Positions 12,551-60,396 of a stretch of 64,000 nt of DNA are shown piece after piece. Source of the stretch: Octopus vulgaris. Taxonomy: Eukaryota. Positions within the stretch are counted from its first letter, which is position 1. Every line of letters starts with the position of its first letter. The translations under genes and the position numbers were made by a program. The notes under the pieces are model-generated. The model had not been told where the DNA came from. It saw only the letters and a list, made by a program, of their open reading frames with translations, and made no database searches. The stretch spans positions 9,734,001 to 9,798,000 of the forward strand of contig OX597814.1 of assembly GCA_951406725.2 (NCBI GenBank), given 5' to 3'.

Positions 12551-13348
12551 AAGGCAACGAGCTGGCAGAAACGTTAGCACGCCGGGCGAAATGATTAGCG
12601 GTATTTCGTATGCCGCTACGTTCTGAGTTCAAATTCCGCCGAGGTCGACTTTGCCTTTCATCCTTTCGGGGTTGATAAATTAAGTACCAGTTACGCACTG
12701 GGGTCGATATAATCGACTTAATCCGTTTGTCTGTCCTTGTTTGTCCTCTCTGTGTTTAGCTCCTTGTGGGTAGTAAAGAAATAGGTATTTTGTCTGCCGC
12801 TACGTTCCGAGTTCAAATTCCACCGAGGTCGACTTTGCCTTTCAACCTTTCGGGGTCGATAAATTAAGTACCAGTTACGCACGGGGGGGGGGGTGATATA
12901 ATCGACTTAATTCGTTTGTCTGTCCTCTCTGTGTTTAGACCCTTGTGAGTAGTAAAGAAATAGGAATTTTGTCAGCCGCTACGTTCTGAGTTCAAATTCC
13001 GCCGAGGTCGACTTTGCCTTTCATCCTTTCGGGGTCGATTAGATAAGTATCAGTTACGCACTGGGGTTAATATAATCGACTTAATCCCTTTGTCTCTCCT
13101 TGTTTGTCCCCTGTGTGTGTAGCCCCTTGTGGGCAATAAAGAAATAAGGATCGTTAGCATGCCGACCAAAATGTTTAGGCGTATTTCATCTGTCTTTACG
13201 TTCTAAGATCAAATTTCGCCGAGATCGACTTTGCCTTTCATCGCTTCGGGGTCAATGAAATATTGAACGAGATGAGCACTGAGGTCGATCCAATCGAATA
13301 TTCCCCTTCCTCAAAATTTTAGTCCTTGTGTCTATAGAAGAAAGGATG
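12551..13348 (+). mobile_element. SINE family A, ~4 tandem units
   Basis: The core ccgaggtcgactttgcctttca recurs four times at about 175-200 bp spacing. Confidence 0.85.
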
Positions 13349-14118: not shown

Positions 14119-14393
14119 TACGTGATCTGATCAATAAGTATCCGGACGGTTGCCATAGTAATGAAGCTAAGGCACGCAGAGTAGAGCCGCTTGGCAGAGA
14201 TTGACCTTGAACTCTGCTGTGCATACGCACTAAGTTTTAACGCTCTAGCTCAGTTCTGTTGTTTACAGCAGTGCTTGGAAGTAACTGTGTAGCGTGTGTT
14301 CGTCGAATTGACCATGATAGAGAAAGTTGAGCAGAGAATCTGCATCAAATTTCGCCAAAAGCTTGGAGATATCTGCTCAGAGGCCTACGTAAA
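14119..14393 (+). mobile_element. Mariner element 5' end with transposase N-terminus remnant
   Basis: TA then TIR-like cgtgatctgatcaataagtatccggac; ATG at 14314 gives MIEKVEQRICIKFRQKLGDICSEAY. Confidence 0.8.
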
Positions 14394-14837
14394 GTTTTCA
14401 AACAGTTTCATCGTTCCCAACACAATCAAGAAGATGTACAGCTGAAACCCGAGAGCCTTTTTGGTCAGTTGAAAGCAGTTTTGGCACAAACTTGGCAGAC
14501 ACGCGCTCATACCCATATCTTCAGTCATAATGGACTGAACTGAACCGTATCTAATCTGCCCTCACAGATGCACGCACATCGATGTGTTTTTTCAATTTTG
14601 CTGGCTGCGAGTCTCCCAGAACGTTCGTCAATATCAACATTTTTTTGGCCATCTTGGAAAGGTCTAGACCACCCGTACACGTGTGTGCGGCTCATACACT
14701 CCTCTCCATACACTTTCTGCAACTTTGCGTAGGCCTCTGAGCAGGTATCACCACGACAAATTTCCTTGTCATGATTAATGCGGCGATCATACTTTACACA
14801 CAATATTCGAAGTAGTGCTGTAAACAGCGGAAGTGAG
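14394..14837 (-). pseudogene. Mariner transposase N-terminal (HTH) remnant
   Basis: GDTCSEAYAKLQKVYGEECMSRTHVYGWSRPFQDGQKNVDIDERSGR, then in shifted frames YGSVQSIMTEDMGM and RVSAKFVPKLLSTDQK (WVPHEL-like linker). Confidence 0.85.
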
Positions 14838-14851
14838 CCGGGACAAGGCAA

Positions 14852-14895
14852 CTGAAGACATATGTTTCTGAGTGTATCGCTCATCGTCAGTTCAG
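14852..14895 (-). ncRNA. Type I hammerhead ribozyme, canonical core, palindromic stem III
   Basis: CUGAA-CUGACGA-UGAGcgauacaCUCA-GAAA-CAUAUG-UC-UUCAG: stem I 5 bp, stem II 4 bp, stem III ACAUAUGU, GUC site. Confidence 0.85.
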
Positions 14896-15143
14896 GGTAG
14901 CTTGCCTCGCTCGCTGAGATGACTGCAACCTCTCTGCAAATATATCATATTATCAGTAAAATTTATTTACAGTATACGACCCCTATATCGCTTCACCACC
15001 GCTTATGTCTCTCTGAGACATTTAGAAATTCAATATTTCTAATTTCGGTGATCAGTAAATAAATTTTACTGTAAATATGATATATATTCGAAGAGGTTGC
15101 AGTCATCTCAGTGAGCGAGACTGACTACCCTGGACTGACTACC

Positions 15144-15187
15144 CTGGACTGACGACGAGCAATACACTCAGAAACATATGTCTTCAG
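15144..15187 (+). ncRNA. Type I hammerhead ribozyme (inverted partner of 14852-14895)
   Basis: CUGGA-CUGACGA-cGAGcaauacaCUCa-GAAA-CAUAUG-UC-UUCAG; G-U pair in stem I, mismatch at the base of stem II. Confidence 0.8.
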
Positions 15188-15348
15188 GTGCCTTGTCCCG
15201 GCTTGCGGGGGTGATTGCCTCCCCCTTGCAAATATAAGGACGCAGAAACTGTGTCAAAGCCGACAGGAAACGTCGATGTTTCCTAGGGCTAAATGACGGT
15301 GGTGTAATTCCCTTACGGGACTGTCACATTGAGTTGACAGTATACGAC

Positions 15349-15409
<61 letters not shown>

Positions 15410-15419
15410 GTCATCATCA

Positions 15420-15680
15420 GTTTGTATCTATGTATATGTCTTTGTGCTTGTGTTTGTCTCCCCCATCACCGCTTGACAACCGGTGTTGGTGTGTTTAAGT
15501 CCCTCGTAACTTAGCGTGGAAAGAAAGAAAGAAAGAGAGAGAGAGATCAATAGAATAAGTACCAGGCTTTAAAAAAATAAGTCCTGGGATTGATTTGTTC
15601 GGCTAGAACCCTTCAAGGCGGTGCTCCAGCATGGCTGCAGTCAAATTACTGGAAAATAAAAGAGTAAAAGGATAAAAGGA
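15420..15680 (+). mobile_element. SINE family B, 3' half
   Basis: cgcttgacaaccggtgttggtgtgttt...aggcggtgctccagcatggc...aaagagtaaaag. Confidence 0.8.
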
Positions 15681-35230: not shown

Positions 35231-36053
35231 CCTATTTCTTTACTGCCCACAATCGGTTAAACCCAGAGTGGACAAACAAGGACAAACAAACGGTATTAAG
35301 TCGACTATATCGACACCAGTGCGTAACTGGTACTTGATTTATCGACCCCGAAAGGATGAAAGGCAAAGTCGACCTCGACGGGAATTTGAACTCATAATGT
35401 AAAGACGGACGAAATACTGCTAAGCATCTTGCCTGTCGTGCTAACGATTCTTATTTCTTTACTGCCCACAAGGGGCTAAACATAGAGAGGACAAACAAGG
35501 GCAGACAAAGGGATTAAGTCGATTACATTGACCCCAGTGCATAACTGGTACTTATTTAATCGACCCCGAAAGGATGAAAGGCAGAGTCGACCTCGCAGAA
35601 TTTGAACTCAGAACGTAGCGGCAGACGAAATACCTATTTCTTTACTACCCACAAGGGGATAAACACAGAGAGGACAAACAAGGACATACAAACGGATTCA
35701 GTCGATTATATCGACCCCAGTGCGTAACTAGTACTTAATTTATCTACCCCGAAAGGATGAAAGGCAAAGTCGACCTCGGCGGAATTTGAACTCAGAACGT
35801 AGCGGCAGGCGAAATACCTATTTCTTTAGTACCCACAAGGGGCTAAACACAGAGAGGACAAATAAAGACAGACAAACAGATTAAGTCGATTATATCGACC
35901 CCAGTGCGTAACTGGTACTTAATTTATCGACCCTGAAAGGATGAAAGGCAAAGTCGACCTCGGCGGAATTTGAACTCAGAACGTAACGGCAGACGAAATA
36001 CCGCTAAGCACTTCGGCCGGCGTGCTAACGTTTTTGCCAGCTCCTCACGCCTT
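35231..36053 (-). mobile_element. SINE family A, 4 tandem units
   Basis: aaaggatgaaaggca(a/g)agtcgacctc occurs four times. Confidence 0.88.
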
Positions 36054-56518: not shown

Positions 56519-56561
<43 letters not shown>

Positions 56562-56686
56562 ATAAGCAAAGGCTAAAGAAAGTTTTCTAAAGCCAATATA
56601 CTGAAATCCACGTTTAATCTACTTGCTACAGAAAGTTGAACTGAAATGCGGGCAACTCTACCTTTGGAACATCTAAATTTCGTTAT

Positions 56687-56743
56687 CTTAATATTGAATC
56701 AATTTCGGAATCAACACTAAGTGTTTGTTCTTCTTCAGTTAAG
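56687..56743 (-). ncRNA. Type I hammerhead ribozyme
   Basis: CUUAA-CUGAAGA-aGAAcaAACACuuaGUGUUgaUUCc-GAAA-UUGAuUCAA-UA-UUAAG. Confidence 0.75.
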
Positions 56744-56819
56744 CTTACGAGAGAATATAAGTGAGATACTCACACGCGCCCATGGAAAACAGCGGAAGCG
56801 AATAACACAAGCTCATCTG

Positions 56820-56971
56820 ATTTGTTTCAGTCATTTGACTGCGGCCACGCTGGAGCACCGCCTTTTAGTCGAACAAATCGACCCTAGGACTTATTCTTTG
56901 TAAGCCTAGTACTTATTCTATCGGTCTCTTTTGCTGAACCGCTAAGTTACGGGGACCTAAACACACCAGCA
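56820..56971 (-). mobile_element. SINE family B, 3' fragment
   Basis: ttgtttcagtcatttgactgcggccacgctggagcaccgcc. Confidence 0.85.
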
Positions 56972-59890: not shown

Positions 59891-60351
59891 TGGATTCTCT
59901 CATCGAAGACGATGAATGAGGGTTCAGTAAATAACCTTCAGCAATTCCTAAGCCTTGTTGCACCGCATGTGTACCTTCAATCCAGCAGATGTCTTGCACA
60001 CTTAATCGTCATAGAATTAAAAAAAAAAAAAGCACACATCGATGCGCCAAACCTCAGGTGTTATTTAAATGAAAATGGTTTACTGAACAACCGGCACTTT
60101 GACTTGTTTAAAGTGGTCATTGCTTGTGCTGAACAAAGCACACTCTCTCCATCGAATTAACATGGTCTGAACATGGTCTGTACAGGTGCACGGTGTACTA
60201 CACGTCAGATGATAAAACGATCGCAGGATTATCTTATAAGAGTGTTCCGTCTCCTAGATCAGTTGTGAGAGTCAACACTAAAGGGTCTGATCCACCCTGG
60301 TAGGCTTTCTGCGCGCCTGGGCACCATACCAGGTATTTCTAGGTACTCGCG

Positions 60352-60396
<45 letters not shown>

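Follow-up and report, generated by a model that had tools for sequence, protein, structure and literature searches.

A decayed hammerhead retrozyme-type repeat in the octopus genome with probable marks of insertion by a Penelope-like element

In a 64,000-nucleotide window of Octopus vulgaris DNA, we found that the locus at 14836-15356 is probably one decayed member of an abundant family of retrozyme-type repeats, which carry a hammerhead in an ORF-less unit of about 354 bp, and that it was copied into place by the reverse transcriptase (RT) and endonuclease of a Penelope-like element (PLE). Its placement among the retrozymes draws on size, ribozyme type and predicted fold, with self-cleavage and a circular RNA as proposed steps. 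We expect this copy itself to be inert.

Results

Anatomy of the locus

The element lies between a decayed Mariner-type foldback element and the 3' half (15404-15680) of a common repeat that we take to be a SINE. Its features, in coordinates of the window, are as follows.

14119-14838, no strand: decayed Mariner-type foldback element (left flank), arms 14248-14329 and 14757-14838 at 72%, Pfam HTH_48
14836-14838, no strand: AGC microhomology between Mariner arm and element, present in both parents; likely deletion junction
14836-14970, minus: inverted, 5'-truncated unit copy, head-to-head with the main copy and equivalent to 15055-15203
14847-14906, minus: canonical type I hammerhead, core 14890-14884, predicted cleavage after C14857
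14969-14970, no strand: inversion junction with exact 2-nt microhomology (AC); the inverted arm breaks within an AT-rich hairpin
14969-15356, plus: main copy, closed unit 14969-15336 followed by 16-20 nt of its own start (from the direct repeat and contigs of other copies)
14985-15045, plus: tail-like segment between two recurrent family 3' ends (from loose ends and depth drop), with perfect hairpins 15005-15021 and 15022-15042
15083-15234, plus: long rod that ends in the hammerhead; at its base an 11-bp helix, 15083-15093/15224-15234
15119-15153, plus: 14-bp tandem duplication, 2.5 copies, predicted decoy stem I strand (tandem-repeat detection and fold)
15143-15188, plus: type I hammerhead with damage (core 15149-15155; C.A at stem II base), cleavage predicted after C15182
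15239-15340, plus: 3' hairpin cluster (15239-15255, 15258-15290, 15320-15340), the last hairpin spanning the unit end and the 20-mer
15337-15356, plus: second 20-mer, the insertion's 3' end, in an AC-rich stretch; last bases common to the target
15352-15403, no strand: (TA)26 target, an internal microsatellite of the SINE (repeat detection and other copies in the window)
15404-15680, plus: SINE 3' half, 5' half absent here (comparison with other copies in the window)

The unit is framed by a direct repeat (14966-14988 and 15334-15356) with a spacing of 368 bp that contains the 20-mer, and the second 20-mer runs into (TA)26, just as the original prediction had described. The ORF-less 368-bp unit of that prediction stands in its spacing and in its coding content: the longest stop-free frame, read across the unit's own junction, is 51 aa, the unit holds no RT or GIY-YIG frame, and ARAGORN returned 0 genes. 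Its length requires revision. Because the unit contains the 14-bp duplication, 368 bp is the length of the present copy, and the unit without it measures 354 bp; either value agrees with the retrozyme-sized, non-coding unit that had been proposed. The duplication (15119-15153) is left out in one contig each of three public sequencing runs described below (X1, X3 and X10). One contig of a fourth run, X8, spans 15093-15191 with just 2 gaps, so other copies may share the duplication. The window holds no second copy of the unit, and the locus no tandem array of two hammerheads.

Each arm carries a hammerhead, and the minus copy alone is fully canonical

The inverted arms, 14836-14970 and 15055-15203, show 12 mismatches over 133 aligned positions and a net insertion of 14 bp on the right. 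Of these 12 positions, 6 have in the left arm the letter that prevails in X1 and 1 has a minority letter there; the other 5 are not among the variants listed. Each arm contains a type I hammerhead, and the two lie on opposite strands. The CUGACGA cores start at 14890 (minus) and 15149 (plus), the GAAA motifs lie at 14868 and 15171, and the GUC motifs place C17, the predicted cleavage site, at 14857 and 15182, respectively, so that the arms, motifs and sites were all located as predicted. A strict type I descriptor matched three times in the window (both arm hammerheads and a motif at 56738) and in none of 200 dinucleotide shuffles. Rfam gave 0 hammerhead-family matches at gathering score, and the hammerhead family is not among its 22 matches at E up to 10.

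In both hammerheads, helix III consists of an A-U and a C-G pair with an AUAU loop, together forming an 8-nt palindrome for which we predict intermolecular pairing at -7.0 kcal/mol. In the minus hammerhead, 4 bp (UGAG/CUCA) and a 7-nt loop make up stem II, and a 6-nt bulge separates the two 5-bp parts of stem I; its MFE fold shows the same. In the plus hammerhead, a C.A apposition sits at the base of stem II and the 14-bp duplication occupies the expected upper strand of stem I; in the predicted fold, this strand acts as a decoy that outcompetes the true stem I. The closing pair of stem II is thus U-A or C.A in place of the usual G-C. The catalytic stem I has a predicted pair probability of ~0.03 for the plus copy in its own unit and of ~0.5 for the minus arm. 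Judged by sequence, the minus copy alone is fully canonical and intact. The description of two canonical hammerheads consequently holds for the minus copy and fails for the plus copy, which is altered in stem II by the C.A and in stem I by the duplication.

When we folded a transcript of the whole locus, both hammerheads were locked in an arm-arm duplex (probability 0.0). Because they lie on opposite strands, release of a monomer by the pair is impossible. Given the opposite strands and the predicted sequestration in the duplex, we reject a functional ribozyme pair, and a function of the outward-facing arrangement finds no support. Rather, the modeled folds identify the pair as a by-product of the head-to-head insertion, with predicted mutual masking.

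In the left arm, an ATG at 14883-14881 (minus) overlaps the start of stem II; its frame stops after ~19 codons, and the plus copy has ACG at this place. In the anole element Poseidon, the ATG that starts the ORF overlaps the start of stem II (PMC11167929).

The unit belongs to a very abundant family whose copies are joined end to start

We studied other copies through short contigs of public runs rather than a whole genome. Part of the stretch occurs in 20 of the 24 runs listed, from four organisms, and in four of these runs (X1, X3, X8 and X10; organisms A, B, D and A) we matched contigs to 14966-15358 at 80% likeness. This yielded 2079, 1903, 900 and 264 contigs, respectively. Relative to a typical listed contig, the peak summed depth is ~8800x in X1, ~7000x in X3 and ~3400x in X8; summed depth is not copy number and is readable only as 'thousands'. 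The unit is a member of a very abundant repeat family with thousands of copies. Exact-pattern scans of metagenome contigs, prokaryotic genomes and viral contigs returned nothing.

Joints that lead from the unit's end back by 368 to its start occur at 15339 to 14972 (X1) and at 15350 to 14983 (X1 and X8); the shorter flank of these joints measures 34-56 letters. Behind 15356, loose ends form a consensus like the unit start in 31, 31, 14 and 3 contigs of the four runs; agreement is 0.52-0.60 in the first three, that is, a mixture. Four contigs (records 1, 2, 17 and 26) cross 15045 toward the hammerhead with 14-21 differences and 0 gaps, which means that the link between tail and hammerhead belongs to the family and was not created at the present locus. 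Both unit junctions thus occur in other copies, indicating that the template was tandem or circular. These joints and crossing contigs are in line with the earlier proposal that such a template was read slightly more than once round.

Among the contigs listed, none spans the whole unit or two hammerheads, and the listed runs that contain the stretch include none on record as RNA. The end-to-start link in X10, a run that we guess to be RNA, is uninformative about circles because the link is also found in DNA runs. X10 is relatively lower on the tail segment 15008-15045 (ratio 0.33, against 0.66-0.90 elsewhere; one run).

Family ends are largely fixed and inversion points vary

Past 15045, the depth drops to 6.7% in X1, 9.0% in X3 and 12.4% in X8, and at least 23, 25 and 17 contigs leave there into diverse, long, AT-rich and poorly agreeing flanks. 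Copy ends are largely fixed, mostly at 15045, and not random. The circularly permuted end points that had been expected of other copies therefore find no support, only 7-12% of depth being left after 15045 in these three runs. The data suggest a second recurrent 3' end near 15352, weaker than that at 15045: at least 19 contigs end there in X3 and at least 18 in X8, the latter with a median of 182 loose letters, and the depth drop across the unit junction is 10-34%, with an X3 consensus that partly resembles a continuation of the unit. This second end falls in the AC-rich stretch, and the two ends are spaced ~60 bp. The target is AT-rich or (TA)n, namely (TA)26 in the SINE here and AT-rich loose ends behind 15045 in other copies.

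Six joints connect opposite strands, at six different places; the 15 joints listed do not include the inversion junction of the present locus. Since the inversion points differ between copies, the inversions are remade at each insertion. The Penelope-type architecture that had been recognized at the locus is thereby upheld, by the inverted 5'-truncated copy here and by the opposite-strand joints elsewhere. An optional 3' tail of 30-40 bp, an inverted 5'-truncated copy and a bias for (TA)n have been described for PLEs (PMC8557442, PMC3846280), and the tail of the anole element reflects two internal RT starts that both lie in an AC-rich loop past the hammerhead, on its downstream side (PMC11167929).

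The two depth maxima are at 15218-15357 and 15008-15045; over 15050-15200, depth amounts to about a tenth of the peak or less. It falls between 15232 and 15190, where 5' truncation and subfamily divergence are not separable, and in 19 and 14 contigs the loose ends before 15207 carry a divergent form of the 3' side of the hammerhead. Either closed-unit copies like the present one are a minority, or the others are too diverged in the hammerhead region.

Family letters repair the RNA fold

Compared with shuffles, the unit folds with z -3.1 as a linear and -3.8 as a circular molecule, and the segment 14969-15050 with z -3.7. The minus strand of the unit reaches z -5.2, so that folding alone cannot choose the strand. 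Seven family letters differ from the present copy at 94% depth or more in both X1 and X3, and six of the seven restore or strengthen a pair. In the basal helix of the rod, 8 of 11 pairs form in the present copy and 11 of 11 with the family letters. The shares of G at 15270 and C at 15279 track each other across the four runs (56/60, 82/87, 86/89 and 97/95%), which fits a swap from A-U to G-C, the letters being unphased. The hairpin 15320-15340 bridges the unit junction. Because family letters repair helices that are broken in the present copy, we conclude that the RNA fold is conserved.

Other explanations for the family

The uneven depth could also mean that the family consists mainly of pLTR ends left by truncation of an autonomous PLE that targets (TA)n. 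The closed 354-bp unit would then be a minor internal-deletion derivative, moved in trans and without a life as circular RNA. The two depth peaks, the far lower depth over 15050-15200 and the diverged hammerhead 3' side before 15207 speak for this account, as do published reports that PLE copies are mostly 5'-truncated (PMC8557442) and that insertion by the anole PLE in vitro does not need hammerhead cleavage (PMC11167929). We nevertheless consider it improbable. The unit contains no frame above 51 aa, the helices that close the whole unit are conserved, and the hammerhead is canonical as in retrozymes, with a helix II of 4 bp, not of the minimal type with long helix II (PMC4209133). Moreover, a search for six short motifs of the unit found none in the part covered of the Naiad/Hydra supplement to PMC8557442, a text in which line breaks can hide matches.

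A purely rolling-circle retrozyme with random start and stop, in which circular RNA is primed anywhere, the 20-mer is a chance overrun and the arm a template switch, corresponds to the original prediction, has been put forward as a model (PMC4209133, PMC7229834) and would account for the closed unit and for a copy longer than the unit. The single dominant 3' end at 15045 in three runs, with a probable second end near 15352, makes it very unlikely.

Finally, the direct 20-mer repeat and the long inverted arms might suggest a 348-bp insert between target-site duplicates of 20 bp, or a DNA-transposon MITE whose terminal inverted repeats are the arms (larger duplications are mentioned for metazoan retrozymes in PMC7229834). 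Both readings are refuted by the contigs of other copies, unless these are assembly artefacts. In those copies, element sequence adjoins the 20-mer on either side and inversion points vary, and the 20-mer is part of a family hairpin; the element also runs 150 bp beyond the right arm, so that the arms are not its bounds. The same features, a 20-mer made of element sequence and an element reaching 150 bp past the right arm, dispose of the DNA-transposon alternative raised earlier.

Flanks and later damage

Left of the element, the right arm of the Mariner foldback is ~128 bp shorter than its left arm. Between the arms, a minus-strand frame matches Pfam HTH_48 (Mos1) with E 1e-05, a remnant of the transposase N terminus; the left end near 14119 was placed by eye. 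Among eight SINE copies elsewhere in the window that match the first 90 nt, six have the 5' half upstream (4 whole, 2 part). One deletion at AGC likely explains the losses from the left arm, the SINE 5' half and the Mariner end; loss of the flank during insertion itself is an alternative. Where the left arm stops on its outer side is thus unlikely to mark an end of the insertion.

The window consists of animal DNA rich in microsatellites, with SINEs that resemble those of octopus. A further sequence, at 60000-60383, takes the place of the 5' half of a SINE copy and ends in that copy's (TA)n. A unit of 179-184 bp forms three tandem arrays of 2.5-3 copies each (1816-2302, 12612-13066 and 35452-36002). 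The third descriptor match belongs to a second, unrelated hammerhead-like motif (56558-56830, minus; core 56738, UA site 56692) with a long interrupted stem II, which continues for ~135 nt into (TA)n and adjoins a SINE 3' end. Its own predicted fold does not favor the ribozyme, and it resembles a degraded terminus from a different PLE family.

Proposed sequence of events

On the reading that we prefer, insertion of a retrozyme-type unit by a PLE, a tandem or circular unit RNA would first be made, possibly with hammerhead processing as dimers through the palindromic helix III. A PLE protein would then nick (TA)n, here inside the SINE, and RT would start internally, either near 15352 or at 15045, two sites with a spacing of ~60 nt. 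At the present locus, the start would have been near 15352 and the run one unit plus 16-20 nt. A second, shorter cDNA, from either a template switch or another priming event, would have been joined head-to-head at the 2-nt microhomology, giving the inverted arm. A later deletion at AGC may have removed the outer inverted arm, the SINE 5' half and the Mariner end, and point changes together with the 14-bp duplication would have damaged the plus hammerhead. For the family as a whole, we tentatively suggest, as a possibility open to considerable doubt, that it spread SINE-like to thousands of copies in this animal lineage because a PLE that targets (TA)n reverse-transcribes its circular RNA, beginning at two fixed sites within the unit.

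Discussion

The kind of element described here is known and each of its features has been described before; the particular family is a new member. In the literature searched, to which Repbase and most subscription papers do not belong, we found no description of it; the supplement of PMC7229834 may list mollusc relatives.

Retrozymes measure 350-390 bp in mussel and 330-350 bp in axolotl (Cervera and de la Pena 2020, PMC7229834). Like the metazoan non-LTR retrozymes of that study, the octopus family has a non-coding unit of ~350 bp with low GC and strong self-pairing, a canonical type I hammerhead with a short palindromic helix III, head-to-tail linkage of units and a high copy number. Its helix I is ~6 bp, its helix II 4 bp and its helix III short and palindromic, and the unit falls within 150-450 bp, values that define the non-LTR class. 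The traits of the minimal hammerhead of metazoan PLEs (a helix II of 7-8 bp, an extra base after the core and G10.1-C11.1) are absent, helix II having 4 bp and a 7-nt loop. Unlike those retrozymes, the present element stands alone as a single dispersed unit whose ends are fixed and which has an inverted arm. Retrozymes in the strict sense also form tandem arrays of at least two hammerhead-bearing units and self-cleaving RNA that accumulates as circles, and in that sense the family is a candidate member.

With endonuclease-bearing PLEs (PMC3846280, PMC8557442), the element shares the head-to-head inverted 5'-truncated copy, the microhomology junction at a palindrome, the AT-rich target and, less securely, an optional 3' tail, and with the anole Poseidon (PMC11167929) the AC-rich 3' end downstream of the hammerhead. 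It differs from these PLEs in that it has no RT/GIY-YIG frame and that its tail is ~60 bp, compared with 30-40 bp. Its ends lie ~170 and ~230 nt past the predicted cleavage site, whereas the AC-rich start of the anole element lies at ~85-92 nt (PMC11167929). In PLE remnants of Schistosoma, opposite-strand hammerheads lie 100-700 bp apart (PMC4209133), a range that includes the 325 bp between the cleavage sites here. By contrast, the Schistosoma pairs are minimal hammerheads with long helix II, and the present pair is of the canonical form. The design of dimers through a palindromic helix III was described in the same paper.

Octopus vulgaris has recently active Penelope-like families, described in a paper whose main text does not mention ribozymes (PMC13282606). 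According to the supplement of PMC8557442, the octopus Naiad and Hydra families favor (TA)n, and the Hydra-1_Obim hammerhead given there differs from the present ones. In the giant squid, 235 hammerhead 1 matches have been reported (PMC6962438).

No enzyme is yet established as the mover of animal retrozymes; PLEs have been proposed from co-occurrence and pLTR homology. A preprint (Li, Clavereau and Pollet, bioRxiv 10.64898/2026.07.22.740005) regards retrozymes as non-autonomous PLEs, the same conclusion about origin as ours, and also counts monomeric copies. It argues from joint occurrence and from homology of pLTRs, for the most part in vertebrates, whereas we argue from the anatomy of an insertion (tail, inversion and (TA)n), and our partner PLE is putative. 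Only one of nine dimers tested in that preprint cleaved, so activity cannot be assumed here.

The gain is moderate, since the locus is decayed and probably inert and its features are individually known. A closed, ORF-less hammerhead unit that bears the marks of PLE insertion provides anatomical support for mobilization by PLEs and names candidate start sites, and the fixed ends of the family probably hint at the mechanism by which repeats of this kind are copied. If the reading with two PLE starts is true, the genomic ends would be direct evidence of internal initiation by a PLE on retrozyme circles, and a 350-nt RNA would offer a minimal substrate for studies of PLE tails and inversions.
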